Source: an uncultured bacterium
GTDB taxonomy: Bacteria; Hydrothermota; UBA3072; B12-G15
Direction of reading: 5' to 3'
Assembly (NCBI GenBank): GCA_965612735.1
Contig: CBFDSV010000005.1
Span: 866-64,865 of the forward strand
DNA length: 64,000 bases
Part shown: positions 1-44,897 of the stretch, piece after piece
Layout of the letters: every line of letters starts with the position of its first letter
Numbering within the stretch: the first letter of the stretch is position 1
Notes under the pieces: generated by a model
Told to the model about the DNA's origin: nothing
Databases searched by the model: none
The model's input: the letters and a program-made list of their open reading frames with translations, nothing else
Translations under genes and position numbers: made by a program

Positions 1-2673
1 GTGACCGGTGAAGTTCTTGATGGCTGGCCAACAATGAGGACGACCTCCGGGTATGTGAAGGGGATGGTCTTCCCATCTGTTGGAAGCGACCCGCTTTCTG
101 AAGTCCCAATGGCGAATGAGTATATCTGGGTTGGTGGATATGCCACAACAACAAACTCCAGTGGGTATTATACTTCTTCCTATACAGGCACTGTTGAATC
201 CTATTTACGAGGACCCTATGTGAATGCACAGAATGAGGACTATTCAGAGGCATACTATTCAACAAGTTCCTCAAGCATGGATTATTCCCTCTCACAGGTG
301 AGTTACTCCTGGATAAACACCAGCACATCTACGGGTATAACAGGGGATGACCAGAGCAAGGTATTCACTCTCCCATTCTCATTCAACTTCTATGGAACCA
401 CATACAACAGTGTCTATGTATGCAGCAATGGTTTCTTGAGTTTCACTTCCAATTCAACATCATACAGACCAGCAGACATACCGAACACAGGCACACCCAA
501 TGCACTGATTGCACCATTCTGGAGAGACCTGACCCCTGATGCAAGTGGAACAATCACCTATACAAGCACAAGCAGTTATTTTGTTGTCACATGGAACAAT
601 GTTAAGAACTACTCCAATTCAAGCAGGCAGACATTCCAGGTTATACTCTATTCAAATGGTGAGATTGTGTTCCAGTACAAAACAGTATCCAATGATGTAA
701 CTACCTCCATTGGTATTGAAAACCAGGATGGAAGTGGTGGAAAGACTGCAAGTTTTCCATCAAACTATACTGCCTACAAGTTTACACCTGTTGGTGGCTC
801 CTCAGGGAACACCTCCTGGACATGGGCATACTCAACAACCAACACCCATGTGGATGAGGTGAATGTATTCTACCATGTGAACTACATCCATGACTATTAC
901 AAGAATACCAGAGGATACAGTGGAATGGATTATCAGATGAAGGCAACTGTCCACTATGGAACAAACTATGCAAATGCCTTTTATTCACAGAGTGACAAGA
1001 ATATATACTTTGGAGATGGTGATGGTTCAAACCTTTTACAGACCTCAAGGGCATGCGATGTTATCTATCATGAATACACGCATGGTGTAACAGACCATGT
1101 TTACAGGGTTGACACTGGCAACAGCAGTGCCCTTCCTTATACCGGTCAGAGCGGTGCAATTGATGAGGCACTCTCTGATTACTTCCCTGCAAGTGTAACC
1201 AATGACCCCAACATGGGTGAATGGGTTATGGCACAGCAATATCAGAGGAATCTTGAAGACCTCTATGTTTATCCAGACGACTGGGCAGGAGAGGTACATG
1301 ACGATTCAAGGATTATATCTGGTGCATTCTGGGATATAAGGAAGGCAGTTGGACAATCAATAGCAGATAAACTCATCTTTGAGGCAGAATTCTATTATCC
1401 TGAGGACTTCCTTGAATTCAGGAATGCAGTAATACAGGTTGACCAGAATCTTTACAATGGCTCCCATGTGGATGCAATAAAGAGCGCCTTTGCAAGGCAC
1501 GGTATAGGTGATACAGGAGGAGGTGGGACAACATCTGCCTATGAGATGACCAGTACCACATACTCCTGGATAAACACCAGCACATCCACGGGCATAACAG
1601 GGGATGACCAGAGCAAGGCATTCACACTCCCATTCTCATTCAACTTCTATGGAACCACATACAACAGTGTCTATGTATGCAGCAATGGTTTCTTGAGTTT
1701 CACTTCCAATTCAACATCATACAGACCAGCAGACATACCGAACACAGGCACACCCAATGCACTGATTGCACCATTCTGGAGAGACCTGACCCCTGATGCA
1801 AGTGGAACAATCACCTATACAAGCACAAGCAGTTATTTTGTTGTCACATGGAACAATGTTAAGAACTACTCCAATTCAAGCAGGCAGACATTCCAGGTTA
1901 TACTCTATTCAAATGGTGAGATTGTGTTCCAGTACAAAACAGTATCCAATGATGTAACAACCTCCATTGGTATTGAAAACCAGGATGGAAGTGATGGTGT
2001 GAAGTATGCATACTCATCCTCTGCCCCATCTGATTACAGTGCCATTAAGTTTACACCTGTTGACAGCACAGGTGGTGGTGGTTCTTATGTATGGACAGAG
2101 GTAACATACAACATATCCTCTCCTCACTATTACGAGAATAACTACGACAACACCTGGACAATCACCCATAATGGAGCATTAAAGATGGCAGTACACTTCT
2201 CCCAGTTTGACACAGAATCGGGTTATGACTTTGTTTACATATACGACGCAGACTACAACCAGGCTGCAAGGTATGATGGGAACAGGGGCGCATTCTGGTC
2301 AACTGATGTTGACGGAGATGTAATACGGGTAAGGCTTCAAACAGATTACAGTGTAACAAGGTATGGTTTTGATATTGACAAGTATGCATGGTATGGGAGT
2401 GGAAAGGCGGGGATTGTTGACCTCACAGGAAGACAATCTTTTGAGGTTGCCACAACACTTATAAAATCTGAAATCCCTTACTCATACAGGTTGAAATCAA
2501 ATGCTGAAATAACTGTTTTCAACATTGCGGGAAGGCTCATGCTTCATACAACCCTCACCCCTGGTGAAGGTAGTGGTTTGCTCAGGATACCACATGCCAG
2601 ACCTGGTGTTTACTTTGTTAAGGTGAAGGGTAAAGGACTGGATAAATCCTTCAAGATTGTTAAAATAAAATGA
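1..2673 (+). CDS. Secreted M4 (thermolysin-like) zinc metallopeptidase with a duplicated N-terminal/propeptide-like domain, a CUB-like domain and a T9SS C-terminal sorting domain. Probably 5' partial: the ORF begins at the window edge with a GTG and has no signal peptide.
   Basis: Thermolysin-like blocks are readable directly: YDYYKN, FGDGDG, HEYTHGVTD (HExxH) and GAIDEALSD about 20 aa later (third zinc ligand Glu). The C-terminal roughly 70 aa (ITVFNIAGRLM...PGVYFVKVKG...KIVKIK) resembles a type-A T9SS CTD. A 144-aa segment is repeated on both sides of the protease domain. Confidence 0.75.
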   Translation: MTGEVLDGWPTMRTTSGYVKGMVFPSVGSDPLSEVPMANEYIWVGGYATTTNSSGYYTSSYTGTVESYLRGPYVNAQNEDYSEAYYSTSSSSMDYSLSQVSYSWINTSTSTGITGDDQSKVFTLPFSFNFYGTTYNSVYVCSNGFLSFTSNSTSYRPADIPNTGTPNALIAPFWRDLTPDASGTITYTSTSSYFVVTWNNVKNYSNSSRQTFQVILYSNGEIVFQYKTVSNDVTTSIGIENQDGSGGKTASFPSNYTAYKFTPVGGSSGNTSWTWAYSTTNTHVDEVNVFYHVNYIHDYYKNTRGYSGMDYQMKATVHYGTNYANAFYSQSDKNIYFGDGDGSNLLQTSRACDVIYHEYTHGVTDHVYRVDTGNSSALPYTGQSGAIDEALSDYFPASVTNDPNMGEWVMAQQYQRNLEDLYVYPDDWAGEVHDDSRIISGAFWDIRKAVGQSIADKLIFEAEFYYPEDFLEFRNAVIQVDQNLYNGSHVDAIKSAFARHGIGDTGGGGTTSAYEMTSTTYSWINTSTSTGITGDDQSKAFTLPFSFNFYGTTYNSVYVCSNGFLSFTSNSTSYRPADIPNTGTPNALIAPFWRDLTPDASGTITYTSTSSYFVVTWNNVKNYSNSSRQTFQVILYSNGEIVFQYKTVSNDVTTSIGIENQDGSDGVKYAYSSSAPSDYSAIKFTPVDSTGGGGSYVWTEVTYNISSPHYYENNYDNTWTITHNGALKMAVHFSQFDTESGYDFVYIYDADYNQAARYDGNRGAFWSTDVDGDVIRVRLQTDYSVTRYGFDIDKYAWYGSGKAGIVDLTGRQSFEVATTLIKSEIPYSYRLKSNAEITVFNIAGRLMLHTTLTPGEGSGLLRIPHARPGVYFVKVKGKGLDKSFKIVKIK
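304..736 (+). repeat. Copy A of a near-identical 433-bp intragenic direct repeat. Copy B is at 1561..1993, offset 1257 nt (419 codons).
   Basis: Nucleotide alignment of 304..736 against 1561..1993 shows only about 6 mismatches. The encoded 144-aa segments differ at 1-2 residues (K/A at one position). Confidence 0.9.
1561..1993 (+). repeat. Copy B of the intragenic direct repeat.
   Basis: See copy A. About 99% nucleotide identity, which is unusual for an old domain duplication. Confidence 0.9.
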
Positions 2674-5591
2674 ACCTCCTTCTCATATCATTACTTTTGC
2701 TCTCCCCTTTTAACCCTTCAGGCAGGGGAAAGAAGTCATCTTTTTCCCCTGTTCTGATTCAAAGGAAGCCAAACAATTTCAGTGAGGATAAAACCTTCCT
2801 GAACAAGGTTAAAAGATATGGTACGAAGGAAAAATATAGGAAGGAAAATCAGGGTGAGGAAACTTATACAGAGGGTGTGAACTTTACACGAAACCACGGT
2901 ATCTGTGTGGAGACCTACGACCAGACCTATCCCTCCATGGCTGTGAATTCCAAGGGAACAATCTATGCTGCTGTTGATTACTACAATGGAAGCACATACG
3001 AGGTTGATGTATTCGTATCAAGGGACAATGGAGACAACTGGGATTATGCATTCTACCTTTACAGTTCCACCTTTAACTACAGACATCCACACATTGTAAT
3101 AAATCAGGGTGATACCATATACATTTTCTACGAGACGGATGATACACTGGGTTTCCAGTACCTTGAATCACCTGACGGTGAAAAATGGTACAGGAGTTAT
3201 ATATCTTCATGGACTTTTTACCCTGATAGATGCCTTTATCCCAGGGCTGCTGTGAAGGATTCATTCATCTATGTGGCTTTCATGTATGACTATTATGGTG
3301 ATGGGAGTGATTATGATGTGGGTTACCTTTACTCAAAAGACCATGGCAATTCCTGGTATGATTATCATGATAACCTTGCAAACACATCCAGCCATGAACT
3401 CTATCCAGTTGTGGCAATATCTGATTCTGTGGTTGGTATTGCATACCAGTATGAGACTGCCTCTGCTGATTCAGACTGGTATGACATAATGTATGATTAC
3501 GATAAATTTTCAGATTCCTGGACTGAGATTTATGGGATTGCCTCTTATCATGATGATTACTATCCTGACCTTTATGCAGATGGGAATTATATGGTGATTG
3601 CCTGCATGAGGAACTATAACTACCCTGCATCAGACTGGGATATCTGGATGAGAAGGTCTTCCAATGGTGGAACATCATGGGATGGGTTTTCATTCAGACC
3701 AGCCCATTCAGGTTACGACGAGAAGTATCCATCAATCTTCTGCATTGCTGATACAATGTACCTTGTTTATACATTTGATAACAGGAGAATCTGTTATGCA
3801 GATTCCTTTCTGGCAGTTGACACATGGGCTGCTGATACCTGTTCTGAGAAGGATAAGGTTTACCCTGCATTCAGAAATTCAGATATTATCGTGAATTCCA
3901 CACAGAAAATGGTCTCATGGGTGGACACACGGAATGAAGGAAACATCACAAACATAGGTAAGGATATCTACTTCGCCACAGATTATCCCATCACCAAAAG
4001 TTGTGATATAAAATGCTACAAACCACAGGACTGGACAGATTTTCTCATCCCATCCAATGTCAAAGGGACAACAACACCCTCAAACACACTACCAGGTTCA
4101 CCTCCAACAGGTGGAGATTCAACGTACATTGATTTTGCCCTCATTGATGCCTCTCCTGTTGATGCTGAGGATACGATTTACTCCTGTTTATATGTTGATG
4201 ACGCAGAAAAACAATTTTTCTATTCACCACCACTGCCCGCAGGATGGTATGCATATGCCCTTGATTACAGCATCCTTATTATGGGTGGACGGCATACCCT
4301 GAAGGTTGTCCATGATTATACTGATAGGAATACAGAACTTGACGAGGCAAACAACTCATATGGGAAGCAATGGGTTTTCTCTCCCCTTCTTCTCTCTGAT
4401 GACTCTCCAGGTATTTACAAGGCACCACCGTATCCCCAGACAGAGTTCAGTCCACCTGACACATTCAACTGTGATGGATTCTCTGTGATACCAACATTCT
4501 ACTGGGGTTGTGTGGGAATAAGGCCACCAGAGGCTTCAGATTATGACATGAGGATTTATACAGATTATTCAAATTCCACCTCAGGATTCTCAAACTACAT
4601 CACCACATCCAGTGCTGACCAGGGTGGTGTTGATTTTATCATGATTAATGGAAACTACCTGAGTGATTCAACCTTTTACCCTGGTGTTTACAGACTTTCT
4701 GGTGTTGGGGATTACCTGATTGAATGGGATAGAACCGACGGAACTCTGGGTTCATCAGGATGGAATTCTTATGACACACTATATTCAGGACATGTGCTTA
4801 ATGTTTATGATGTTTATCTCTCTTCTGGACAGGTTTACTATGTTGCACTTGAACAGACAGGGAGCAATGAGACCCTTGGATTTGCAGTTTATTCCTCATG
4901 GGATGGAAAGTATATTAAGGCAAGGGGAGACTGGGAATGCTTCAGGGATACAATCACTGGTGGGATAACAAAGGATACTTTATTCACCACTTCAACATCA
5001 GGATGGCATGGAATAGTGGTATGGAACAGTTCTAACTCCTCAAAGGGCGATGGAATATACAGAATCTACATTTCATCCAGTCCTCTATCCATAGCACTGA
5101 GCGATTTCTCAATAATACTTAAAAATGGCTATCCCTATATAGCATGGGGGTCTGACCTCAAGGTGGACGCATGGATAATCACGAAGAAATCAGGAAGGGA
5201 TGAGGAACGCTATGAACTTCCACCTGATGTAAGGCATTTCTATGACCGGATGGTTCAGCCAGGAAACTATACTTATTCACTTTACTATAAGAAAAATGGG
5301 ATGGAGACACTTCTAAAATCAACAAACATCCATGTACCAGCCCCTGAATTCTCTGTAAATCTCATGAACACAATTGTCACAGACCAACTGCTCTTGAGGA
5401 TTGGTGGTCATGGAAAGGCAGACGTGAAAATCTTCGGGATAGATGGCAGGATTTTCTACAGGGGCAGAATTACTGAATCATCACCTGAATTCAAAAAAAT
5501 AAGGTTGAATCTACCCTCTGGTGTATATCTTATCAAGGTATGTTCAGATAAAGGGATTCTGGTAAATAAGAAAATTTTACTTCTGGAGTGA
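2670..5591 (+). CDS. Secreted BNR/sialidase-like repeat protein with a CARDB-like segment and a T9SS C-terminal sorting domain.
   Basis: Signal peptide MNLLLISLLLLSPF. BNR-type SxDxGxxW motifs (SRDNGDNWDY, SKDHGNSWYD, SSNGGTSWDG). A DEANNSY CARDB-like motif. The C-terminus VKIFGIDGRIFYRGRI...SGVYLIKVCSDKG matches a T9SS CTD. The start ATG overlaps the upstream stop (ATGA). Confidence 0.6.
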   Translation: MNLLLISLLLLSPFNPSGRGKKSSFSPVLIQRKPNNFSEDKTFLNKVKRYGTKEKYRKENQGEETYTEGVNFTRNHGICVETYDQTYPSMAVNSKGTIYAAVDYYNGSTYEVDVFVSRDNGDNWDYAFYLYSSTFNYRHPHIVINQGDTIYIFYETDDTLGFQYLESPDGEKWYRSYISSWTFYPDRCLYPRAAVKDSFIYVAFMYDYYGDGSDYDVGYLYSKDHGNSWYDYHDNLANTSSHELYPVVAISDSVVGIAYQYETASADSDWYDIMYDYDKFSDSWTEIYGIASYHDDYYPDLYADGNYMVIACMRNYNYPASDWDIWMRRSSNGGTSWDGFSFRPAHSGYDEKYPSIFCIADTMYLVYTFDNRRICYADSFLAVDTWAADTCSEKDKVYPAFRNSDIIVNSTQKMVSWVDTRNEGNITNIGKDIYFATDYPITKSCDIKCYKPQDWTDFLIPSNVKGTTTPSNTLPGSPPTGGDSTYIDFALIDASPVDAEDTIYSCLYVDDAEKQFFYSPPLPAGWYAYALDYSILIMGGRHTLKVVHDYTDRNTELDEANNSYGKQWVFSPLLLSDDSPGIYKAPPYPQTEFSPPDTFNCDGFSVIPTFYWGCVGIRPPEASDYDMRIYTDYSNSTSGFSNYITTSSADQGGVDFIMINGNYLSDSTFYPGVYRLSGVGDYLIEWDRTDGTLGSSGWNSYDTLYSGHVLNVYDVYLSSGQVYYVALEQTGSNETLGFAVYSSWDGKYIKARGDWECFRDTITGGITKDTLFTTSTSGWHGIVVWNSSNSSKGDGIYRIYISSSPLSIALSDFSIILKNGYPYIAWGSDLKVDAWIITKKSGRDEERYELPPDVRHFYDRMVQPGNYTYSLYYKKNGMETLLKSTNIHVPAPEFSVNLMNTIVTDQLLLRIGGHGKADVKIFGIDGRIFYRGRITESSPEFKKIRLNLPSGVYLIKVCSDKGILVNKKILLLE

Positions 5592-7443: not shown

Positions 7444-7471
7444 TTGACAAAACCCATTATGTTTGTAAATT
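7444..7471 (+). promoter_or_regulatory. Sigma70-like promoter for the hydrogenase operon: TTGACA, 16 nt spacer, TAAATT.
   Basis: TTGACA at 7444..7449 and TAAATT at 7466..7471. RBS AAAGGAGG sits 4 nt before the ATG at 7499. Confidence 0.5.
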
Positions 7472-7498: not shown

Positions 7499-8545
7499 AT
7501 GAGGGTGGTGAAACTGAAGAAGAAAAACCTTGTGCCTTTTCTGAGGAAACTTGAGGAGTTTGGAGAGGTCTGGGGACCTGTTAAAAAGGGTGACAAGTAT
7601 GTGTATGCCCACACTGACCCTGAAAACTTTGACCTGAAGGCATTAAGAACCATCATACCCCCAAAAAAGTTTTTTGTTCCTCCAAAGTTCAGGATGTTCA
7701 CATTTAAGGAGGATGAGTGGAACGAGGAGATAGACACAAAGAAAAGGATACTCTTTGGTCTGCATCCCTGTGATATTCACGGAATACTGATTCTTGACAA
7801 ACTCTTCCTCTCCAATTATCCAGACCCATACTATAAAACAAGGCGGGAAAACACAGCAATCATCGGGCTATCATGCGAACCAGACGATAAGTGCTTCTGC
7901 AAATCAACAAACACACATTCAGTTGAGGAAGGCTTTGACCTTGCCCTATCCGACATAGGGAATGAATACCTTGTCTGGATAGGTTCTTCACTTGGTGACG
8001 ACCTTCAGAAGATGGGTGAAGACCTGATTGATGAGGATGTTACAGAGGCAGATATAAAGAAATACATTGAGTGGAGAAAGAAGAGGGATGGAATGTTCAA
8101 AACAGATATAGACCTCACTGCGATGCCTGACATCTTTGAGATAAGTTACAACTCTCCAATATGGGAGAAACTGGGTGAATACTGCCTCTCCTGTGGTCAA
8201 TGTTCAATGGTCTGCCCCACCTGCAATTGCTATGATGTTGAGGATAACTACAGGGTTGGAAGTGAGATAGAGAGGAATAGACACTGGGATAGTTGTATGT
8301 TCAGGGAGTATTCACTGGTGGCAGGAGGACACAACTTCAGGGAGGCCAGGTCTGAGAGGCTAAAACTTTTCTATACACATAAACTTGCAGGTTATATGAG
8401 TATATTTGGTAAGCCAGCCTGCGTTGGATGTGGAAGATGTGCAGACACATGCCCTGTGGACATAAATGTACCAAATGTTGCAAGGGCACTCAAAGGCGAA
8501 AAGGTGGATGCAATATGGGCAAAGGAGGTGAAGGATGCAGGCTAA
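7499..8545 (+). CDS. hydB: Group 3b [NiFe]-hydrogenase (sulfhydrogenase-like) beta subunit, iron-sulfur protein.
   Basis: Cys-rich ferredoxin-like clusters (CLSCGQCSMVCPTCNC, CVGCGRCADTCP). It is the first gene of a hydB-hydG-hydD-hydA order identical to Pyrococcus sulfhydrogenase. It overlaps the next gene by 11 nt. Confidence 0.75.
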   Translation: MRVVKLKKKNLVPFLRKLEEFGEVWGPVKKGDKYVYAHTDPENFDLKALRTIIPPKKFFVPPKFRMFTFKEDEWNEEIDTKKRILFGLHPCDIHGILILDKLFLSNYPDPYYKTRRENTAIIGLSCEPDDKCFCKSTNTHSVEEGFDLALSDIGNEYLVWIGSSLGDDLQKMGEDLIDEDVTEADIKKYIEWRKKRDGMFKTDIDLTAMPDIFEISYNSPIWEKLGEYCLSCGQCSMVCPTCNCYDVEDNYRVGSEIERNRHWDSCMFREYSLVAGGHNFREARSERLKLFYTHKLAGYMSIFGKPACVGCGRCADTCPVDINVPNVARALKGEKVDAIWAKEVKDAG

Positions 8546-9392
8546 TCAGGTGAAGCCCACATACAACATATTCACAATGGATAAGGCAAGGATTGTGAGG
8601 TTTTATGACCTGACAAAGGATGTGAGATTCTTCCAGGTGAGACCCTATACATTTGATATGGCTTGCATGATGGACTATAGACCAGGCCAGTTCATGATGG
8701 TCTCCATACCAGGTGTTGGGGAGGCCCCATTTTCTATCTCATCAACACCATCAAGGCCAGGTCTCTTTGAATTTGGTATCAGGAAGATGGGTGTTCTGAC
8801 AGAGAAACTCTTTGAATTGAAAGAAAACTCCTTCATCTGGATAAGGGGCCCATACGGGAATGGTTTCCCCATAGAAAAAATGAAGGGACACAATCTGATT
8901 ATTGTGATGGGTGGACTTGGTGCAGTACCGCTCCGTTCCCTACTCCTGTATGCACTTGATAACAGAGAGGACTTTGGTGATATATACCTACTCTATGGAG
9001 CAAGAACACCTGATGATATGCTTTTCAGGGATGAGTATCTTTCCATGAAGCACAGGGATGATGTAAAGGTTCTGCTCACAGTTGACTCAGACCCAACAGG
9101 TGTGTGGAGTGAAGATATAGGGGTTGTTACAAATCTCTTTTCACGCATAAAGGGAATAGACCCTGAAATGACATATGTTGCAGTGTGCGGTCCACCAGTC
9201 ATGTACAAGTATGTTATAAAAGAACTAATAAAGATGGAGATACCCAAACACCAGATACTCATGTCCCTTGAAAGAAGAATGAAGTGTGGTGTCGGAAAGT
9301 GTGGACACTGCGCAATAGGATACATCTACACATGTATTGATGGACCCGTATTCACCTACTGGGATGTTATACACATGAAGGAACTTATATAG
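8535..9392 (+). CDS. hydG: Group 3b hydrogenase gamma subunit: FAD/NAD(P)-binding oxidoreductase with a C-terminal [2Fe-2S] cluster.
   Basis: FNR-like fold length (285 aa). C-terminal CGVGKCGHCAIGYIYTCIDGP motif typical of the HydG/AsrB family. Sits between hydB and hydD. Confidence 0.75.
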   Translation: MQANQVKPTYNIFTMDKARIVRFYDLTKDVRFFQVRPYTFDMACMMDYRPGQFMMVSIPGVGEAPFSISSTPSRPGLFEFGIRKMGVLTEKLFELKENSFIWIRGPYGNGFPIEKMKGHNLIIVMGGLGAVPLRSLLLYALDNREDFGDIYLLYGARTPDDMLFRDEYLSMKHRDDVKVLLTVDSDPTGVWSEDIGVVTNLFSRIKGIDPEMTYVAVCGPPVMYKYVIKELIKMEIPKHQILMSLERRMKCGVGKCGHCAIGYIYTCIDGPVFTYWDVIHMKELI

Positions 9393-9400
9393 GAGGTAGC

Positions 9401-10186
9401 ATGGGGAAGAAACCAAAGGTTGGATTTTACGGACTAACAGGGTGTGCAGGAGACCTTCTGAACATAATCAATTGTGAGGATGAACTGGTTGAACTCTTTG
9501 ATATCTTTGAGATAAAATCATTTGTCATGGCCTCAAGTGTAAAGGACGAATCTGTCCATCTTGATATAGCGTTCGTTGAAGGCTCTGTATCCACTGAAAA
9601 AGACCTTGAAGACCTTAAAGAGATAAGGAAGAAATCAAATATGCTTGTTGCCATTGGTCACTGTGCAGCATTCGGGGGTGTTCAGGCCATGCACCTTGGC
9701 GATGGGAAGTGGAAGGAGAGATATAAAAAGGTATATGGTGGAGAAAAGGCAGTAACCCTTACAAAGCCAATGGAACCAAAGCCTCTATCCGCCTATGTGA
9801 AAGTGGACTATGTCATCCCGGGCTGCCCCATCTCAAAGGAGCAGTTCCTCCACGCAGCAGGAAGGCTCCTGCTCGGGACAGTGCCAAACCTCTACACCTT
9901 TGCTGTATGTGCTGAATGCAAATGGAAGGAAAATGAATGTCTTCTTATGAAAGGATTGCCTTGTCTTGGTCCCCTGACAAGAGGGGGATGTGGTGCAATC
10001 TGCCCGAGTTTTGGTGTCCCATGTATTGGATGCTGGGGGCCTGTTGACGAAGAAAACATAAGCAGTGAATTCAAACTACTTCTTGAAAAGGGTTACGACA
10101 AAGAGGAGATCATAAGGAGATTCAGAATATTTGGTGGGAGTGAAAGGGCTAAAAAACTGAAGAAACTCCTGGGGGTGAAGAAATGA
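9401..10186 (+). CDS. hydD: [NiFe]-hydrogenase small (delta) subunit, cytoplasmic type with no Tat signal.
   Basis: 261 aa with conserved Cys ligand pattern (GCAGD, GHCAAFGG, GCPIS, CAECKWKENECLLMKGLPCLGPLTRGGCGAICP). Overlaps hydA by 4 nt. Confidence 0.8.
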   Translation: MGKKPKVGFYGLTGCAGDLLNIINCEDELVELFDIFEIKSFVMASSVKDESVHLDIAFVEGSVSTEKDLEDLKEIRKKSNMLVAIGHCAAFGGVQAMHLGDGKWKERYKKVYGGEKAVTLTKPMEPKPLSAYVKVDYVIPGCPISKEQFLHAAGRLLLGTVPNLYTFAVCAECKWKENECLLMKGLPCLGPLTRGGCGAICPSFGVPCIGCWGPVDEENISSEFKLLLEKGYDKEEIIRRFRIFGGSERAKKLKKLLGVKK

Positions 10187-11469
10187 AGAAGGTGAATATT
10201 GAACCAATAGCAAGGGTAGAAGGGCATGGAGGCATAAGGGTTGAGGTTGAGAAGAACAAGATTAAGAAGATCACGGTTGATATATATGAGGGTCCAAGGC
10301 TGATTGAACAGATGGTGGTGGGGAAAACCCCTGAAGAGGATGTATCCATCACCTCAAGGATATGTGCAATCTGTTTTGCATCCCACAGGCTTGCCGCTAT
10401 CACAGGGCTTGAAAAGGCACTGGGTATAAAGGTCTCAAAAAAGACGGAACTCCTCAGAGAACTTGCCCACTTTGGAGAGATGATAGAAAGCCACTCACTC
10501 CACTATTACCTGCTTGCGCTCCCTGACCTGGTTGGATATCCTGATGCAATTTCCATGGTGAACAAGTATCCCGATGATGTTGTTGGTGGTCTTGAATTAA
10601 AAAAGTTCGGGAACAGGGTGATGGAGATAATTGCAGGGAGAAGGATACATGGGGAAAACATGCGGATTGGTGGATTTGGTAAAATACCCTCAGATGAAGA
10701 ACTCAACTGGATAAAGAGAAGGGCATCAGAACTCATTCCCATTATTGAGAGTGGGCTTGAACTATGGGGAAAACTGGAGATACCCGACTACATGGAAGAA
10801 GAGACAAACTTTGTCTGTATGGAACCAGGTAATAATCAGTTTGGATTCTCTGGAACTGAGATAATGGTTTCAGATGGTACAAAGGTTGATGTTGAGGAAT
10901 ATAAGAAAATCACCAATGAGAGGGTTGTTGAACACTCCTTTGCAAAAAGGTGCAGATATAAGGGAAAACCCTACACTGTTGGTGCAATTGCAAGGATAAT
11001 AAATCTTGGGGACAGGATAAAGACACCCATAGCAAGGGACTATCTTGACAGATACTACGATGAGAAAAAGTGGAAGAGAAATCCCATATACAACAATGTG
11101 GCACAGGCAATAGAACTCTTGTGGTGTCTTGAAAAAATCCCTGGATTGGTTGATGAGATAAAAAAGGCAGAATACAAACCTGTGAAAGCAAAGAGGGAAG
11201 ATGGAACAGGAACAGGTGGTGTTGAAGCTCCAAGGGGAACCCTTTTTCACAGTTACAAAATCAAAAATGGGCTTGTTGCAGAGGCAAACTTCATAGCACC
11301 AACCACCCAGAACCTTGATGAGATGGAGAAATACATGATGAATGCTGCAAAAAATCTCCTCAACCAGGGCAGGGAAGATATTGAACTACCGCTTGAGATC
11401 ATAGTCAGGGCGTTTGACCCATGCATAAGTTGTAGTGCCCACCTTGTAAGGGTGGTTAAAAAAGGCTGA
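10183..11469 (+). CDS. hydA: [NiFe]-hydrogenase large (alpha) catalytic subunit, group 3-type.
   Basis: N-terminal RVEGHGG and RICAICFASH (L1 Ni-binding Cys pair). C-terminal DPCISCSAH (DPCxxCxxH) Ni-Fe ligand motif. Confidence 0.9.
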   Translation: MKKVNIEPIARVEGHGGIRVEVEKNKIKKITVDIYEGPRLIEQMVVGKTPEEDVSITSRICAICFASHRLAAITGLEKALGIKVSKKTELLRELAHFGEMIESHSLHYYLLALPDLVGYPDAISMVNKYPDDVVGGLELKKFGNRVMEIIAGRRIHGENMRIGGFGKIPSDEELNWIKRRASELIPIIESGLELWGKLEIPDYMEEETNFVCMEPGNNQFGFSGTEIMVSDGTKVDVEEYKKITNERVVEHSFAKRCRYKGKPYTVGAIARIINLGDRIKTPIARDYLDRYYDEKKWKRNPIYNNVAQAIELLWCLEKIPGLVDEIKKAEYKPVKAKREDGTGTGGVEAPRGTLFHSYKIKNGLVAEANFIAPTTQNLDEMEKYMMNAAKNLLNQGREDIELPLEIIVRAFDPCISCSAHLVRVVKKG

Positions 11470-11473
11470 CACT

Positions 11474-11506
11474 AAAGGGGGTTCAACACCCCCTTTTTGT
11501 TTTTAT
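11474..11506 (+). terminator. Rho-independent terminator after hydA.
   Basis: AAGGGGGT-tcaac-ACCCCCTT hairpin followed by TTTTGTTTTTATT. Confidence 0.7.
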
Positions 11507-11576
11507 TCTGACACCTTGCAATGGTTAATATTAAGAGTAAATTATATTCCTGAACAACCTTAAAAAGGAGGTAAGA

Positions 11577-12920
11577 ATGAAGGAATATGATGTTGTTATA
11601 GTGGGTGGTGGTCCAGCAGGGCTCACCACTGGAATTTCGGCAAGGAACACCTATCCTGACAAAAAAATAGCACTCATCAGGAAGGAAGAGATTGCCATGA
11701 TTCCATGCGGAATTCCCTACACAATCCACACACTTGAAAAGGTTGAAGATGACATACTTCCAGATGCACCAATCAACAAAAACAACATTGACCTGATTAT
11801 TGACAGGGTTGTGAATGCCAGTGACCACAGTCTTGAACTCGCTTCCGGTGAAAAGATAACATTCAGAAAACTTGTTATTGCCACAGGTTCAGTCCCCTTT
11901 ACCCCTCCCATACCAGGCATTGATAAGAAGAATGTATGGTTTGTTAAGAAGGAGAAAAACTACCTTGAGAAGATGAAAAAGGGGCTGAATGAGGCAGGAA
12001 CTGTTATCATTATAGGTGGTGGATTTATCGGGATTGAGGTGGCAGATGAACTTCTCAAAGCAGGAAAAAAGGTTTATGTGATTGAAAAACTTCCATCCCT
12101 CCTTCCACTTGCAATGGACAGAGAATTCGGTGATATGGCAAAAGAGGTTCTCACTTCTCTGGGTGCAGAAGTCCTTACAGGGGTTACTGTTAAGGAGATA
12201 ACAGGTGCAGAATCTGTTGATGGTGTCCTGCTTGACAATGATAAAAAAATCGCCGGAGATGCAATTGTTATTGCTGCTGGCTACAGACCAAACCTTGAAC
12301 TTGCAAAAGATTTAGAACTGAAGATAGAAGAAAGATATGGAATAGTTGTGGATGAATATCTGAGAACAAGCAGGGAGGATATTTTTGCAGTTGGTGATTG
12401 TGCAGTAAAGAGATGCTGCTTCACAGGAGAATATTCTAAAATCATGCTTGCTTCAACTGCAATGGCTCAGGGAAGGCTTGCAGGCTCAAATCTCTTTGAA
12501 ATAAAGGTAATAAAGGGATTCCTTGGAACACTTGGAACATTCTCCACAAAGATTGGAAACACTGCATTTGGTGTTTCAGGCCTTACAGAGGAACAGGTAA
12601 AGAGAATTGGCATTGATTATGTGGTGGGAATCAACGAAACCGTTGACAGACATCCCGGGAAACTACCGGGTGCCTCAAAGATTTACACAAAACTCATATA
12701 CTCAAAATACTCTCACATCCTGCTGGGAGCACAGGTAAAGGGTGGAGACTCTGTTGGTGAACTTGTGAACATGTATTCAGTCATAATCCAGAACAGGATG
12801 ACGGATATGGAAATTGATACACTCCAGATAGGAACACATCCCCTCCTCACATCCTCACCAATAGCATACCCGGTTATAAATGCAACTGTAAATGCCATCC
12901 TGAAATGGTATAAAGGGTAA
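11577..12920 (+). CDS. FAD-dependent pyridine nucleotide-disulfide oxidoreductase of the NADH oxidase / CoA-disulfide reductase (possibly NSR-like) family.
   Basis: N-terminal VVIVGGGPAGLT dinucleotide fold. Single redox Cys in AMIPCGIPY (the CoADR/Nox SxxxCGxPY active-site context). A second GGGFIGIE NAD fold. 447 aa. Confidence 0.75.
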   Translation: MKEYDVVIVGGGPAGLTTGISARNTYPDKKIALIRKEEIAMIPCGIPYTIHTLEKVEDDILPDAPINKNNIDLIIDRVVNASDHSLELASGEKITFRKLVIATGSVPFTPPIPGIDKKNVWFVKKEKNYLEKMKKGLNEAGTVIIIGGGFIGIEVADELLKAGKKVYVIEKLPSLLPLAMDREFGDMAKEVLTSLGAEVLTGVTVKEITGAESVDGVLLDNDKKIAGDAIVIAAGYRPNLELAKDLELKIEERYGIVVDEYLRTSREDIFAVGDCAVKRCCFTGEYSKIMLASTAMAQGRLAGSNLFEIKVIKGFLGTLGTFSTKIGNTAFGVSGLTEEQVKRIGIDYVVGINETVDRHPGKLPGASKIYTKLIYSKYSHILLGAQVKGGDSVGELVNMYSVIIQNRMTDMEIDTLQIGTHPLLTSSPIAYPVINATVNAILKWYKG

Positions 12921-12922
12921 AT

Positions 12923-12950
12923 AAAGGGGGGCTCCGCCCCCCTTATTTCG
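12923..12950 (+). terminator. Rho-independent terminator.
   Basis: GGGGGGC-tcc-GCCCCCC hairpin followed by TTATTT. Confidence 0.7.
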
Positions 12951-13289: not shown

Positions 13290-15098
13290 ATGAGAAGGTT
13301 TTCAGTGATTTTGGTCTTTTGTTCATTCCTTGTTTTTGGTGCTGTGGATTATCCAGAACAGTTGATGGCTGAAAATCATTATGAAGACTCTGGCAGTGTC
13401 AAGGGTGACTCCCTCAATGTGAGATTTGTTGGCAACTGGCCGTTTGGCCTTTCCTATGCAGTAGCATACGATTCTTTAAGAAGCCTTGCATTTTGTGGTT
13501 CTGGTGGAGGTGTATATATCCTGAATGTATCAGACCCTTCATCTCCTGTTAAGGTATCAGAGGGAATCCACACCAGAAGTCTTGTGTATGGTTTATTTTA
13601 TGATGCTTCTTCAGAGAGGGTCTATATTGCGGATGGTGATGCTGGGCTTGAGATATGGGATGTATCCACACCTTCATCACCTGTAAAACTGGGCTTTTAT
13701 GATACACCTGATCAGGCTCATGGTGTTGCAGTTTCAGGCACGTATGTATATGTCGCGGATGGAGGTTCTGGGCTCCGTGTGATAGATATATCCGACCCTT
13801 CAAATCCTATTGAAGTGGGCTATTATGATACACCTGGTTATGCACGGGGTGTTGCAGTTTCAGGCTCTTATGTATATGTTGCGGATGGCAGTTCTGGGCT
13901 CCGTGTGATAGATATATCCACACCATCAAATCCTTCTGAGGTGGGGTATTATGATACACCTGATTATGCTTATTGTGTTGCATTATCAGGTTCTTATGCA
14001 TATGTTGCAGATGATGATTCAGGACTTTGTGTGATAGATATATCAGACCCATTAAATCCTTCTTTGAAAGGCTCTTATGATACACCTGATCAGGCTCATG
14101 GTGTTGCAGTTTCAGGCACGTATGTATATGTCGCGGATGGAGGTTCTGGGTTCCGTGTGATAGATATATCAGACCCTTCAAACCCTGTTGAAGTGGGCTA
14201 TTATAATACACCTGATGATGCTCATGGTGTTGCAGTTTCAGACTCTTATGCATATGTTGTAGATGGTTGGGATGGTCTTCGTGTTATAGATATATCCGAC
14301 CCATCAAATCCTACAGGAGTGGGCTATTATGTTCCACCTGGTTATGCTTGGGGTGTTGCAGTTTCAGGCTCTTATGTATATGTCGCGGATGGAGGCTCTG
14401 GGCTCCGTGTGATAGATATATCCGACCCTTCAAACCCTGTTGAAGTAGGCTATTATGATACACCTGGTTATGCTTATGATGTTGCATTATCAGGTTCTTA
14501 TGCATATGTTGCAGATGATAATGCTGGGCTCAGTGTTATAGATATATCCGACCCATCAAATCCTAGACGAGTGGGCTATTATTTTACACCTGGTTATGCT
14601 AGGGGTGTTGCAGTTTCGGACTCTTATGCATATGTCGCGGATGGCAGTTCTGGGCTCCGTGTGATAGATATATCCGACCCTTCAAATCCTTTTGAAGTGG
14701 GCTATTATGATACACCTTATTCGGGTAATAATGTTGCAGTTTCAGGCGCTTATGCATATGTTGCAGATGGCCGTAGCGGGCTCCAGATTTATGAAAATCT
14801 CCTTTTTGGTATTGGTGATTCTCAGGATGAGATTTCTCTTCCTGTTTTCCGACTCTCACAGAATCCAGTTGTTTGTGATTATATAGAAATTGAATTGAGT
14901 GTTGAACAAAAGGATGGGTATGATTTAAACCTCTATAATCTTCTCGGGCAGAAGGTAAAAACCTTTACCATAAGTGGCCTATCTGCTGGCAAGCATAAGA
15001 TAAGACTGGAAACAAAAGGTCTAACAGGTGGTGTGTATTTTCTGAGAATGGGAGATAAAGAGAGTCAACAGTGTGTTAAGGTTACAATTATGAAATGA
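13290..15098 (+). CDS. Secreted LVIVD-repeat protein (about 11 tandem 40-aa repeats) with a T9SS C-terminal sorting domain.
   Basis: Signal peptide. Repeats of the form [42 protein letters not shown] (LVIVD/PF08309-like). C-terminal [21 protein letters not shown]. Nucleotide repeat units of about 120 bp, several nearly identical. Confidence 0.7.
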   Translation: [602 protein letters not shown]

Positions 15099-21273: not shown

Positions 21274-22204
21274 AACAAGAGACTTTCTAAAAAAATACGA
21301 GAGTTTCCTCATCACATCCCATAAAAATCCCGACGGAGATGCAATTGGTTCTCAGATAGGGCTTGCCCTTGCCCTGAAAAAAATGGGAAAGGACGTGATT
21401 ATAGTAGATACAGACCCTGTTCCAAAGAGGTTCAGATACTTTGACCAGATTGACCTTGTCCAGAATGAAATAGGGGATTTTGACTATCAGGCCGTGATTG
21501 TGCTTGACAGTTCAAGCCCTGACAGGCTTGGTAGCATATCAGAAAAGATAGACTTCACAAAACCTGTTGCAAACATAGACCACCATATAAGCAATAAGTA
21601 CTTTGGGACAGTAAACCTTGTCCAGCCAGAACGCTCATCCACCTGTGAAATCGTCTATCTTCTATTAAAGGATTTTGTGGAACTTGATAAAGAGATTGCA
21701 ACATACCTCTATCTTGGACTTTTGACTGATACTGGTTCATTCAGATATGCCAATACCCGGGCAGAATCATTGAGGCATGCCTCTGAACTTTTAAGTTACG
21801 GGGTTGATGCAAGTTCTGTTGCTGAAAGGATATGGTTCAGGGATACGCCAGGAAGACTGAAACTTCTCGGGTCTGTGCTTGAAACCATTGAGATATTTGA
21901 TGGTTTCAGCCTGATGTATGTAACAAGGGAGATGATGGAAAGGTACAACACAACAGAGGAAGACACTGAGGAGTTTGCCTCATATGGGCTCACCATAGAC
22001 GGTGTCAGGGCAACTGCATTTGTCAAAGAGAGGGATGGAGAGATAAAGGTATCACTCAGGTCAAAGAAGGGAACAGATGTTGACAGAATTGCTGCAATCT
22101 ATGGTGGTGGTGGTCATAAGAGTGCTGCTGGATTCACTGTTAAGGGGAAAAACTTCTTCTCATTCATTGAGGAATTGAAAAGGGTCATGGAGGAGAATAT
22201 ATGA
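21266..22204 (+). CDS. nrnA: DHH-family phosphoesterase, NrnA-like bifunctional oligoribonuclease / pAp phosphatase.
   Basis: DHH N-domain motifs (HKNPDGDA, DHH) and a DHHA1 C-domain GGGGHKSAAG. Confidence 0.75.
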   Translation: MNKTRDFLKKYESFLITSHKNPDGDAIGSQIGLALALKKMGKDVIIVDTDPVPKRFRYFDQIDLVQNEIGDFDYQAVIVLDSSSPDRLGSISEKIDFTKPVANIDHHISNKYFGTVNLVQPERSSTCEIVYLLLKDFVELDKEIATYLYLGLLTDTGSFRYANTRAESLRHASELLSYGVDASSVAERIWFRDTPGRLKLLGSVLETIEIFDGFSLMYVTREMMERYNTTEEDTEEFASYGLTIDGVRATAFVKERDGEIKVSLRSKKGTDVDRIAAIYGGGGHKSAAGFTVKGKNFFSFIEELKRVMEENI

Positions 22205-23556
22205 GAATTGGAATAATAGGTGGAGGCCCTGCAGGGTACTCATCTGCACTCCTTGCAGGAATTCTGGGGAATCAGGTTGTCCTGTTTGAAGAAGATACAG
22301 TGGGTGGTGTATGCCTGAACAGGGGATGTATCCCTGTAAAGGCACTTATAAAGGTGGCACACGGTTTGAATACAGTAAAAAAGATTGAAACCTCTGGTAT
22401 AAAGGCTGAGGTAACAGGCATAGACTGGGAGAAGGTAAAGAAGACATCCCAGCTTGCTTCACGAAGGCTTGTTGCAGGTGTTCAGAACCTTTTAAAGAAA
22501 AGGAAGGTTGAAGTTATAAATGCCCATGCTGAACTGAAGGATAGTGGAGTTGTCGTGGCAAATGGAAAGGAATACACCTTTGATAAAGTCCTTGTCTCAA
22601 CTGGTTCAAGACCAAGAATACCTCCCTTCAGGGTGGCAAAGAACGTCTGGACAAGTGATGACGCACTCAATGCAAAAGAGATACCTGAATCAATCGGGAT
22701 TATTGGCGGTGGTGTGATTGGTATTGAATTTGCTTATATATTCAGGTCATTTGGCTCTCAGGTTACAATCTATGAGATAATGGACGAGATTCTTCCGGGA
22801 GAAGATAAAGAGATGGCCTCTTCTTTGAGGAAAGAGATGGAGAAGATAGGTGTGAAATTCAAGTTGGGTGTAATGGTTAATGAAATCACAGAAAGAAAAG
22901 GGACATTCACAATAAAATACACAGATGGTGGTAAGGAGTCAGCGGACAAATACAGCAGGGTGCTTGTGGCAATAGGAAGAGAGGTTGTGGCAGATGGTCT
23001 GTCCGATTTAATAGAAATGGAAAATGGATTTATAAAGGTGAATAGAATGATGGAGACCACTATGAAAAACGTCTACGCAGCAGGTGACTGCACGGGTGGT
23101 CAACTCCTTGCACACACAGCCTATCATGAGGGAGAGATTGCTGTATTCAACATGAATGGCAGGAATGAGAAGGTTAATGAAACCTATGTACCCAGGGTTA
23201 TTTATACAAAACCTGAGTTTGCAGCATGTGGAGAAACAGAGGAAAGGCTTAAAGAAAAGGGTGTTGATTATCAGAAGGAGTTCTTCCCATTCACAGGTAA
23301 TGGTAGAGCCATTGCTGAGTCTGAGACCAGGGGTGGTATAAAGATGCTTTTTGACACAAATGGGAAGATACTTGGTGGAGCAATCCTTGGTGGGTATGCT
23401 TCTGAAATGATACATATCATCTGTGTCTCAATGAAAAACGGGGTAACGGCAAGGGAACTCTTCCATACAATATTTGCCCATCCCACCTACTCCGAGACAA
23501 TAAAAGAGGCAGCAGCCCAATTCCTCCACCTCCCCCTCCATGGGGACGGAGGATGA
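22201..23556 (+). CDS. Dihydrolipoyl dehydrogenase-family (class I) pyridine nucleotide-disulfide oxidoreductase.
   Basis: IGGGPAGYSSA FAD fold. Redox disulfide GGVCLNRGCIPVK. C-terminal HAHPTYSE His-Glu dyad. The last 5 codons and the stop lie inside a REP element. Confidence 0.75.
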   Translation: MRIGIIGGGPAGYSSALLAGILGNQVVLFEEDTVGGVCLNRGCIPVKALIKVAHGLNTVKKIETSGIKAEVTGIDWEKVKKTSQLASRRLVAGVQNLLKKRKVEVINAHAELKDSGVVVANGKEYTFDKVLVSTGSRPRIPPFRVAKNVWTSDDALNAKEIPESIGIIGGGVIGIEFAYIFRSFGSQVTIYEIMDEILPGEDKEMASSLRKEMEKIGVKFKLGVMVNEITERKGTFTIKYTDGGKESADKYSRVLVAIGREVVADGLSDLIEMENGFIKVNRMMETTMKNVYAAGDCTGGQLLAHTAYHEGEIAVFNMNGRNEKVNETYVPRVIYTKPEFAACGETEERLKEKGVDYQKEFFPFTGNGRAIAESETRGGIKMLFDTNGKILGGAILGGYASEMIHIICVSMKNGVTARELFHTIFAHPTYSETIKEAAAQFLHLPLHGDGG

Positions 23557-33478: not shown

Positions 33479-33525
33479 ACACAATATATAGTGGTAATTT
33501 TAAAAAAAACCACAATATATAGTTG
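33479..33525 (+). promoter_or_regulatory. Tandem NrdR boxes (ACACAATATATAGTGG at 33479..33494 and CCACAATATATAGTTG at 33510..33525), spaced 31 bp apart. Box 2 overlaps the -35.
   Basis: Each matches the NrdR consensus acaCwAtATaTwGtgt at 13-15 of 16 positions. Phasing of about 3 helical turns. Located immediately upstream of nrdD. Confidence 0.65.
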
Positions 33526-33551
33526 ACAATCCCTTGCTTTCCCTTTATACT
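33523..33551 (+). promoter_or_regulatory. Strong sigma70-like promoter of nrdD: TTGACA, 17 nt spacer, TATACT.
   Basis: Consensus -35, 5/6 at -10, optimal spacing. RBS AAAGGAGG lies 4 nt before the ATG at 33574. Confidence 0.6.
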
Positions 33552-33573
33552 GGTTTTGAGAAAAGGAGGTTTG

Positions 33574-37949: not shown

Positions 37950-38129
37950 ATGAAGGAGATAAAAAAACAAAATGAAAAAGCCGCATCAAAAAAAATCAGG
38001 GTTAAAGTTATAATGCCAGAGATTTATTCAAGGGTTGTTGGGTATTTCAGACCTGTCCAGAACTGGAACAGGGGAAAACAGAAGGAATTTCAGGAGAGGA
38101 GATACCTTAAGATTGATAAGGGGGTTTAG
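37950..38129 (+). CDS. Stand-alone glycyl-radical domain protein (59 aa) corresponding to the C-terminus of NrdD. Not in the supplied ORF track (below its 60-aa cutoff).
   Basis: Translation is MKEIKKQNEKAASKKIRVKVIMPEIYSRVVGYFRPVQNWNRGKQKEFQERRYLKIDKGV. It contains RVVGY (the RVxGY glycyl-radical motif) and a following NxGKxxE...R segment matching the NrdD C-terminus. GGAGG RBS 4 nt upstream. Its stop overlaps the probable nrdG start. Confidence 0.7.
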   Translation: MKEIKKQNEKAASKKIRVKVIMPEIYSRVVGYFRPVQNWNRGKQKEFQERRYLKIDKGV

Positions 38130-38802
38130 CGGAACCACCCTTATAGATTTTCCTGGAAGGATTGCATCCATTGTCTTTATTGGAGGATGCAATTTCAGGT
38201 GTCCCTTCTGCCACAATCCTGAACTCGTCCTTCCCGACCTAATTCAAAAACTCCCAATTCTTACTTCAGAAGAAGTGTTTGAAGAACTGCAAAACCGCAG
38301 GGGTTTTATTCAGGGTGTCACCATCACTGGTGGAGAGCCCCTTGTATGGGACAGCCTGATTGATTTTGTTAGGGGAATAAAATCACTCGGACTGGAAGTC
38401 AAAATAGATACAAATGGCTCCTTCCCTGAGAGGCTGAAGAAGTTAAAAATTCTGGTTGACTATGTTGCAATGGACATAAAATCCTCTCCTTCAAAGTACC
38501 ATCTTGCAACAGGCACTGATATAGACCTGGATAAACTCAAAGAATCCATAGCAATAGTCAAAACCTTCAGGGATTATGAATTCAGAACAACGGTTGTTCC
38601 AGGATTTGTTGACCAAGAGGACATTCATGAAATTGGAGAAATCATAAAAGGAGCAAAAAGGTATGTTCTCCAGCAGTTTAAACCAACAAAGGCAATAGAC
38701 CCGGATACATTGAGTATAATTCCATATACACTTGAAAGGCTTGAGGACTTCAGGGAAACAATCAAAGACTACGTTGATGAGGTCATTATAAGGTCATACT
38801 AA
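38113..38802 (+). CDS. nrdG: Anaerobic RNR activating protein (radical SAM). The ORF track extends it to a TTG at 38035; the TTG at 38113 fits homologues better.
   Basis: GGCNFRCPFCHN (CxxxCxxC radical SAM cluster) about 25 aa from the proposed start. GGEPL SAM-binding motif. Immediately downstream of nrdD and the glycyl-radical ORF. Confidence 0.8.
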   Translation: MIRGFSGTTLIDFPGRIASIVFIGGCNFRCPFCHNPELVLPDLIQKLPILTSEEVFEELQNRRGFIQGVTITGGEPLVWDSLIDFVRGIKSLGLEVKIDTNGSFPERLKKLKILVDYVAMDIKSSPSKYHLATGTDIDLDKLKESIAIVKTFRDYEFRTTVVPGFVDQEDIHEIGEIIKGAKRYVLQQFKPTKAIDPDTLSIIPYTLERLEDFRETIKDYVDEVIIRSY

Positions 38803-44540: not shown

Positions 44541-44897
44541 ATGTTTATAGGTAAGGTCATAGGCACTGTATGGGCCACCAGAAAGGTGGAATCGTTGAGT
44601 AATTTGCGTTTCCTCCTGATTCAGCCTGTTGATATAGAGAGGGAGGCAACAAAAAGTGTGGTTGTTGCTGCAGACCCAATTGGTGCAGGGCCAGGTGAAA
44701 TGGTTCTTGTCTCCTTTGGCAGGGCTGCAAGGCTTGCATGTGGAAATGAAGACCTGACTATAGAAGCAGCAGTAATTGGCATTGTTGATTCTATTGACAT
44801 AAATGAAGTCTCAATAAAGAAGGGTGTTGAGGCCTTTGACCTCCTTCAAAGGGAACTTGAGAAAGCAGGGCTGAGAGTGAAGAAGAAAGATGAATGA
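44541..44897 (+). CDS. Bacterial microcompartment vertex (pentamer) protein of the EutN/PduN/CcmL family, with about 25 aa C-terminal extension.
   Basis: GKVIGTVWATRKVESLSNLRFLLIQP ... AADPIGAGPGEMVLVSFGRAARLA ... AAVIGIVDSI is collinear with EutN/PduN (PF03319). Confidence 0.7.
   Translation: MFIGKVIGTVWATRKVESLSNLRFLLIQPVDIEREATKSVVVAADPIGAGPGEMVLVSFGRAARLACGNEDLTIEAAVIGIVDSIDINEVSIKKGVEAFDLLQRELEKAGLRVKKKDE

Follow-up and report, generated by a model that had tools for sequence, protein, structure and literature searches.

Group 3b [NiFe]-hydrogenases are defined in HydDB as NADP-coupled, reversible enzymes, possibly with sulfhydrogenase activity (PMC5037454). They have already been reported widely across bacterial candidate phyla (PMC5037454) and rank among the commonest hydrogenases in surveys of anoxic sediments (PMC6472368). 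The closest described relatives of the enzyme considered here are the sulfhydrogenases I (SHI) of Pyrococcus furiosus and Thermococcus kodakarensis (PDB 9nez and 5yxy), with the gene order beta-gamma-delta-alpha. This report concerns an operon of the same kind, hydBGDA, and the flavoprotein gene that follows it, at positions 7499 to 12920 of a 64-kb stretch of contig CBFDSV010000005.1 from an uncultured bacterium; the whole stretch is referred to below as the window. Near-identical copies of its HydA and flavoprotein (HDI83632.1/HDI83631.1 and MCD6276978.1/MCD6276979.1) are labelled candidate division WOR-3 bacterium, and a literature search combining WOR-3 with group 3b returned general metagenomic surveys only. 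The population is present in hydrothermal sediments of the Pescadero/Guaymas type.

The described enzymes with which the flavoprotein can be compared include TM0379 and TK1481, the coenzyme A (CoA) disulfide reductases and NAD(P)H sulfur oxidoreductases (CoADR/NSR) of the PF1186/PH0572 type, and the Npsr enzymes of Archaeoglobus fulgidus and Shewanella. TM0379 is an NAD(P)H-dependent reductase of S0, polysulfide and thiosulfate, stimulated about 4-fold by CoA without being dependent on it; it is sensitive to O2 and lacks NADH oxidase activity (PMC9431562). TK1481 is 57% identical to it, PF1186 and TK1299 only 34% (PMC9431562). TK1481 of T. kodakarensis is described in the same source as an NAD(P)H oxidase and a CoA-independent polysulfide oxidoreductase (PMC9431562). 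In Thermococcus onnurineus, proteomics demonstrated that sulfur lowers the SHI subunits while raising NSR and the TK1481-type NAD(P)H polysulfide oxidoreductase (NPSOR) (PMC4463584). The sulfur-induced proteins SipA and SipB of Thermococcales are of the Nitro_FeMo-Co and Mrp/ParA domain types (PMC4463584).

Set against these systems, the locus is best explained as two independent, ordinary units, a group 3b hydBGDA operon and a TM0379/TK1481-type flavoprotein, which share at most the NAD(P)H pool; we place the probability of this reading at about 75%. The features that make up the two units are as follows.

7444..7471, + strand: candidate sigma-70-like promoter upstream of hydB (TTGACA, 16 nt, TAAATT; 10 of 12 consensus matches)
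7499..8545, + strand: hydB, Fe-S beta subunit (AsrA-like), 348 aa; two CxxCxxCxxxCP motifs and further Cys; matches Fer4_22, sulfhyd_ShyB and 9nez_B
8535..9392, + strand: hydG, FAD/NAD(P)-binding gamma subunit, 285 aa; C-terminal [2Fe-2S] cluster residues C251, C256, C259 and C267; matches 9nez_C
9401..10186, + strand: hydD, hydrogenase small (delta) subunit, 261 aa; 12 Cys, no Tat signal; matches Oxidored_q6 and 9nez_A
10183..11469, + strand: hydA, [NiFe] large (alpha) subunit, 428 aa; RVEGH, RICAIC (C61, C64) and DPCISCSAH (C414, C417); matches 5yxy/9nez
11474..11506, + strand: intrinsic-terminator-like hairpin with T-run; 9-bp stem, 5-nt loop, 4 nt after the hydA stop
11577..12920, + strand: TM0379/TK1481-type single-Cys FAD flavoprotein, 447 aa, a putative NAD(P)H polysulfide/persulfide oxidoreductase and/or NAD(P)H oxidase; Cys44 in PCGIPY, GDC275, QIGTHPLLT (His421)
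12926..12950, + strand: terminator-like hairpin GGGGGGCTCCGCCCCCC after the flavoprotein gene; RNAfold dG -18.0 kcal/mol

All five open reading frames (ORFs) lie on the + strand, at coordinates matching those listed beforehand for the window, and each is preceded by a GGAGG-type ribosome-binding site. The spacing along the five genes is -11, +8, -4 and +107 nt; hydB, hydG, hydD and hydA, which overlap or are separated by 8 nt, are therefore considered to form one operon with translational coupling. The wider gap before the flavoprotein gene contains the G+C-rich hairpin (11474-11496, RNAfold dG -13.8 kcal/mol) and its T-run, consistent with the initial annotation, which had placed the flavoprotein downstream of a terminator in the same orientation as hydBGDA. 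The stem of the second hairpin, on the 3' side of the flavoprotein gene, is located at 12926-12941. Terminator-like and promoter-like sites are no more numerous in the region than in shuffled sequence, and the hairpins are used as evidence solely through their position directly after stop codons. With a hairpin between the two units, the flavoprotein gene would probably be transcribed independently of the operon.

The relationship of the operon to SHI is apparent at every level compared. The four subunits align full-length with those of SHI (E 1e-60 to 1e-98) and appear in the same gene order, with like Ni-Fe ligand motifs, Fe-S Cys patterns and FAD/NAD(P) domains and a small subunit that is Tat-less in both; the differences are the bacterial (WOR-3) host and a sequence divergence befitting a distant orthologue. 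HydB matches Fer4_22 in Pfam (E 1.9e-32), the NCBIfam models sulfhyd_ShyB (E 3.4e-101) and HydB (E 4.7e-86) and, as its best PDB match, the sulfhydrogenase 1 beta chain 9nez_B over residues 1-331 (E 9.9e-78). HydG carries the Pfam domains FAD_binding_6, NAD_binding_1 and DHODB_Fe-S_bind, matches PRK08345, ShyC and HydG in NCBIfam and 9nez_C in the PDB (E 1.6e-67), and its four-Cys cluster is a PyrK-type [2Fe-2S] motif. HydD belongs to Oxidored_q6 and to the NCBIfam families ShyD and HydD, with 9nez_A as the best structure (E 3.3e-60, as against 1.1e-31 for Mvh G). Its N-terminus, MGKKPKVGFYGLTGCAGD, contains no twin-arginine (RRxF) motif, as expected of a cytoplasmic small subunit and as the initial annotation had noted.

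HydA, a NiFeSe_Hases member in Pfam, provides the Ni-Fe ligands in RICAICFASH (residue 59) and DPCISCSAH (residue 412); beyond the second motif, the C-terminal tail extends by 8 residues (LVRVVKKG). Its similarity to characterised large subunits separates the hydrogenase groups clearly. Among solved structures the SHI alpha subunit (5yxy/9nez_D) scores 333 bits (E ~2e-98), against 188 bits (2.6e-54) for Mvh of group 3c, 173 bits (1e-49) for the F420/Frh type of group 3a, 151 bits (5.9e-43) for Hox of group 3d and at most 122 bits for group 1. The NCBIfam models give the same ranking, with sulfhyd_HydA/ShyA at 365-368 bits (~1e-109) versus VhuA at 190, FrhA at 163 and NuoD at 22. For all four subunits the best NCBIfam models are those of Thermococcales sulfhydrogenase subunits (E 1e-65 to 1e-110). 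The scores fall below the equivalog cut-offs (for HydA, 368 vs 880 bits), as expected for a distant, divergent bacterial orthologue. The four-subunit architecture is complete: the small and large subunits are joined by a beta subunit of the AsrA-like Fe-S type and a gamma subunit of the AsrB/PyrK-like FAD-NAD(P)-[2Fe-2S] type. Judged from subunit order, cofactor motifs and the nearest characterised relatives, through which the HydDB assignment was emulated, hydBGDA is classified as a group 3b [NiFe]-hydrogenase, and the Pyrococcus-type identity proposed initially, together with the motifs quoted for it and for the flavoprotein (RICAICxxxH, DPCISCSAH and AMIPCGIPY, all present in the translations), is upheld. 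Reading hydB and hydG as parts of an AsrABC sulfite reductase was rejected, the AsrA and AsrB models scoring far below the sulfhydrogenase models and asrC being missing.

The operon is not accompanied by its maturation genes. Pfam scans of the 35 window ORFs contained no hyp or endopeptidase gene, tblastn of HypA, HycI and HypF from a relative (L090) against the window gave nothing better than E 0.16, and a motif scan for HypB/C/D/E in six frames of the window found nothing inside a real ORF. This agrees with the initial annotation, in which hyp maturation and endopeptidase genes were reported missing from the 64 kb. The arrangement differs from that in the 65%-identical L090, where hypA, an mrp-like gene, hydBGDA, hycI and hypF follow one another; in the present organism the maturation machinery is probably encoded elsewhere in the genome. 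As a separate observation, some group 3b large-subunit homologues of ~580 aa (P0215, P0226, P0229, P0231 and P0234) carry a fused C-terminal HycI-type endopeptidase (PF00374 + PF01750).

The flavoprotein comprises Pyr_redox_2 (E 1.8e-63), Pyr_redox and Pyr_redox_dim domains. Together with the CoADR/NSR enzymes of the PF1186/PH0572 type (4fx9) and the Npsr enzymes of A. fulgidus and Shewanella (6pfz, 3ntd) it belongs to one superfamily and fold class, having in common with them the FAD and NAD(P)H Rossmann domains, the dimerisation domain and a single Cys in xPCG(I/L)PY. It differs from them in its C-terminal active-site motif, lies on a separate branch of the tree and reaches only 135-176 bits in phmmer. 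Among solved structures, AfNpsr scores 176 bits, PhCoADR 158, Npx 153 and Nox ~130, none better than E 1e-50, and identity to the PF1186/PH0572 type is ~30-35%. Moreover, AfNpsr is a protein of 551 aa with a C-terminal rhodanese domain (PMC7969121), whereas Pfam found no rhodanese domain in the 447 aa of the window protein.

A far closer relative is a TM0379-type ORF, 50% identical over 436 aa (392 bits, E 3e-138); its sequence was taken from a metagenome contig (L092) and not from the Thermotoga maritima genome record, a provenance that tells against the assignment. The contig was recovered with the gene-specific part of the published TM0379 forward primer, and the reverse primer matched too; the ORF starts with MRYDVV, ends with AAEMVL-stop and carries PCGIPY, GDC, DRHPGK and QIGTHPLLT. 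In a neighbour-joining tree, a distance-based phylogeny only, the window flavoprotein and this ORF fall within a clade marked by QIGTHPLLT, with PhCoADR and AfNpsr on a separate branch. Alignment of 21 members (A1) demonstrated that Cys44 (IPCGIPY), GDC275 and the C-terminal QIGTHPLL are invariant, and Cys44, in AMIPCGIPY, is the single redox-active Cys throughout the family. In the HMMER alignment, the LAYAPPY segment of AfNpsr is replaced by the QIGTHPLL stretch.

The window protein thus resembles TM0379/TK1481 in length class (~445 aa), in the motifs PCGIPY, GDC, DRHPGK and QIGTHPLLT and in its clade, while differing in that it belongs to a sub-clade (55-75% identity) without any characterised member, spread over WOR-3, Calditrichota, Ignavibacteria, Aminicenantes, Thermoplasmata and Asgard archaea. 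Relatives in a large protein database number in the thousands, more than 100 of them at 57-78% identity and scattered over phyla as different as WOR-3, Calditrichota, Caldisericaceae, Ignavibacteria/Melioribacteraceae, Aminicenantes, Kryptoniota, Thermoplasmata and Thorarchaeota. The family is unusually conserved, with ~60% identity between WOR-3 bacteria and Thorarchaeota/Thermoplasmata, and its invariant QIGTHPLL(T), containing Thr420-His421, stands where CoADR and Npsr have A-Y-x-P-P-Y.

A true CoA-disulfide reductase, or a strictly CoA-dependent NSR of the PF1186/PH0572 type, would be the obvious alternative from domain models, given that the top NCBIfam matches are CoADR models, PRK09564 (221.7 bits) and TIGR03385 (218.5 bits), and that the PCGIPY active-site motif is identical in PhCoADR. 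Both scores are far under their cut-offs (458 and 578.8 bits), and a third CoADR model, PRK13512, gives 78 bits against a cut-off of 394. The ~158 bits to PhCoADR compare poorly with the 392 to the TM0379-type protein, the A-Y-x-P-P-Y region has given way to G-T-H-P-L-L, and CoA dependence is not seen in the nearest characterised homologues (PMC9431562), all of which makes this identity highly improbable. From its sequence relationships, the flavoprotein is assigned to the TM0379/TK1481 subfamily and not to the PF1186-type CoADR/NSR. The earlier description of a Nox/CoADR-family enzyme therefore stands at the level of the single-Cys superfamily and fails at that of the PF1186/PH0572 subfamily (158-176 bits vs 392). 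The contrary outcome foreseen at the time, clustering with O2-reducing NADH oxidases, is half borne out, the protein falling in the TK1481/TM0379 clade, whose characterised members do not require CoA. The gene is better named after TM0379/TK1481, as a member of the NAD(P)H polysulfide oxidoreductase/NADH oxidase family, than after CoADR.

By analogy with the TM0379/TK1481 homologues, reduction of sulfur compounds is a plausible function, and gene neighbourhoods are of some help here. Four genes on either side were clustered for 78 loci of the family, which stem mostly from Ignavibacteria, Melioribacteraceae and Bacteroidota and so are not independent. Small Nitro_FeMo-Co proteins and a divergent sigma54/PAS activator occur at 19 loci each, ARMT1/DUF89 at -1 and radical-SAM proteins at 17 each, an Mrp/ParA ATPase at +1 at 15, CGGC proteins at 12 and a peroxiredoxin at +1 at 5. 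At about 15-19 of the 78 loci, among them L006 8001-17350 and many of L020-L060, the flavoprotein gene lies in a cluster of such neighbours that also holds TrmO_N and CbiA-Fer4 genes. Since Nitro_FeMo-Co and Mrp/ParA are the domain types of SipA and SipB, these neighbours indirectly suggest a sulfur-related role of the family.

Oxygen offers another substrate, and the flavoprotein might act mainly as an NAD(P)H oxidase guarding an O2-sensitive anaerobe, with sulfur reduction as a side activity. NAD(P)H oxidation was the role first found for the subfamily member TK1481, as summarised in PMC9431562 and PMC4463584, and the JGI annotation of several close family members reads "NADH oxidase (H2O2-forming)". 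Also in line with this role are the peroxiredoxin at the 5 loci above, a convergent thioredoxin-reductase-like gene in L097/L099 and the peroxiredoxin and OsmC genes that flank the hydA relatives of WOR-3. Against this, TM0379 performs no O2-dependent NAD(P)H oxidation and is itself O2-sensitive (PMC9431562), while the most frequent conserved neighbours (Nitro_FeMo-Co, Mrp/ParA) resemble SipA/SipB (PMC4463584) and not oxidative-stress genes. A primary role in O2 defence is accordingly judged doubtful.

Whether the hydrogenase and the flavoprotein belong together is best considered from the conservation of their adjacency. Scanned against one genome per species, the family alignment picked up 465 confirmed relatives, and the pairing counts refer to the best 80 of these 465 loci. 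Only two of the 80 (L007 and L008) have the window hydrogenase subunits within 10 kb, as searched by tblastn with all four subunits. L007 comes from the same species (98% identity); on its 2.9-kb contig hydA again precedes the flavoprotein gene. In L008, at 74% identity, and in the equivalent L001-L003, the flavoprotein gene lies 5.3 kb upstream of hydB and is separated from it by at least five genes, of which nrdD/nrdG run on the opposite strand. Contig truncation does not explain the rarity of the pairing, since at least 4.5 kb of flanking DNA is present upstream in 52 loci, downstream in 49 and on both sides in 40. No hydrogenase was found near the flavoprotein in its closest non-conspecific relatives (70-73% identity), nor in the one Thorarchaeote and one Melioribacteraceae genome inspected.

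The converse comparison, starting from the hydrogenase, gives a similar picture, with 5 of 7 hydA-relative neighbourhoods lacking the flavoprotein. In WOR-3 relatives whose HydA is 74-76% identical, hydA is followed by convergent peroxiredoxin/OsmC or TspO genes; in relatives at 59-65% identity, hycI-hypF, a radical-SAM gene or a DUF523-type gene comes next. Coordinates of the 1-Cys peroxiredoxin and OsmC genes that come right after hydA in WOR-3 relatives are L087 11329-12497, L088 6775-7943 and L089 8062-8730.

Some observations weigh against treating the two units as independent. In a lower-GC lineage (GCA_964417925.1; L093 10001-15458 and L094 124-5581), a flavoprotein gene (67% identity) lies directly upstream of hydBGDA (HydA 58%), on the same strand and with a 128-bp gap. 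A consensus scan detected no sigma-70-like promoter in the 107-nt gap before the window flavoprotein gene, so that read-through from hydA is possible. The recurrence of proximity in three lineages, arranged differently in each, gives a hint that the association is to some degree selected. The pairing is nevertheless at most a weak, lineage-restricted association, because two loci would fall within 10 kb by chance in ~1% of genomes (a rough estimate, not computed) and because the cases suffer from ascertainment bias, one being the window itself and another the product of a targeted look-up.

A dedicated cytoplasmic pathway from H2 to polysulfide (or CoA-persulfide), in which HydBGDA makes NADPH and the flavoprotein spends it on sulfane sulfur, with linkage kept for function, would account for the adjacency and shared orientation of the genes here and in many same-species assemblies, for the opposite order in L093/L094 and for the 5.3-kb spacing in L001/L008. 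It would also suit the gap without a promoter-like site and the reduction of S0, polysulfide and thiosulfate with NAD(P)H by the 50%-identical TM0379 (PMC9431562). It has to contend with 78 of the 80 species-level loci having no hydrogenase within reach, with the nearest non-conspecific relatives and most hydA neighbourhoods showing no pairing, and with the strong terminator hairpin between the units; even in L093, the flavoprotein and hydBGDA units each have their own promoter-like site (TTGACA-17-TATnnT). A diffusible shared cofactor requires no gene linkage, and the positive support is limited to local adjacency. Furthermore, SHI and NSR/NPSOR respond to S0 in opposite directions in Thermococcales (PMC4463584), which is more in keeping with alternative electron sinks than with a joint pathway. 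We regard such a pathway as unlikely, and the H2/NAD(P)H/polysulfide module that had been suggested from the pairing is not sustained, given 2 of 80 loci within 10 kb plus one further lineage, the intervening terminator and the reciprocal sulfur regulation. A more specific form, repeated recruitment of a TM0379-type reductase beside a 3b hydrogenase in this WOR-3 species and in the L008 and L093 lineages, giving a cytoplasmic, quinone- and molybdopterin-independent route from H2 through NADPH to sulfane sulfur, is rather improbable. If true, it would imply hydrogenotrophic sulfur reducers, or an electron valve that can be switched between H2 and H2S through common local control.

Under the preferred reading of two independent units, hydBGDA would form a cytoplasmic heterotetramer whose HydA subunit splits or produces H2 at its Ni-Fe site. 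From there, electrons would travel by way of the three [4Fe-4S] clusters in HydD and those in HydB to the [2Fe-2S] centre and FAD of HydG, where exchange with NADP(H) could take place. In an anaerobic fermenter the reversible hydrogenase would most likely vent excess NAD(P)H as H2, and it may also recover reducing power. The flavoprotein, presumably a homodimer, would have its FAD reduced by NAD(P)H, and the FAD would then reduce a sulfane-sulfur adduct (or sulfenic acid) on Cys44, the outcome being either H2S from polysulfide, persulfide or thiosulfate, or the reduction of O2. The two units may then be seen as alternative NAD(P)H sinks, and electrons would flow from H2 through NADPH to sulfur only if both happened to be expressed.

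Both parts belong to known kinds and little is gained beyond annotation. When WOR-3 metabolism is reconstructed, the adjacency seen here should not be taken for a dedicated module linking H2 and sulfur. The QIGTHPLLT sub-clade, highly conserved, broadly distributed and with SipA/SipB-like neighbours, is a reasonable biochemical target for the study of cytoplasmic sulfur reduction in uncultured anaerobes.

Several other features of the window deserve mention. The locus is flanked by genes for large secreted proteins that carry C-terminal sorting tails for type IX secretion, at 1-2673, 2670-5591 and 13290-15098 (all + strand); the first has an internal duplication of ~230 aa and the last is an 8x LVIVD-repeat beta-propeller. 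An anaerobic ribonucleotide reductase, NrdD, of 1471 aa (33523-37938, + strand) contains intein-splicing and LAGLIDADG homing-endonuclease insertions and is followed by a radical SAM activase at 38035-38802; the nrdD/nrdG pair between the flavoprotein gene and hydB in L001 is intein-free. On the - strand, 43471-44457 encodes a 328-aa protein with an IS200-like Y1 transposase domain (PF01797), which may be domesticated or a REP-associated tyrosine transposase. At 44541-46197 (+ strand), a gene of the EutN/CcmL pentamer type precedes one with Complex1_51K/RnfC_N/Fer4 domains (PduS-like), with no microcompartment shell genes evident nearby. Downstream of rbfA and a DHH/DHHA1 gene, a second pyridine-nucleotide disulfide oxidoreductase, two-Cys (GGVCLNRGCIP) and of the dihydrolipoamide-dehydrogenase type, is encoded at 22201-23556 (+ strand), unrelated to hydBGDA and the flavoprotein.

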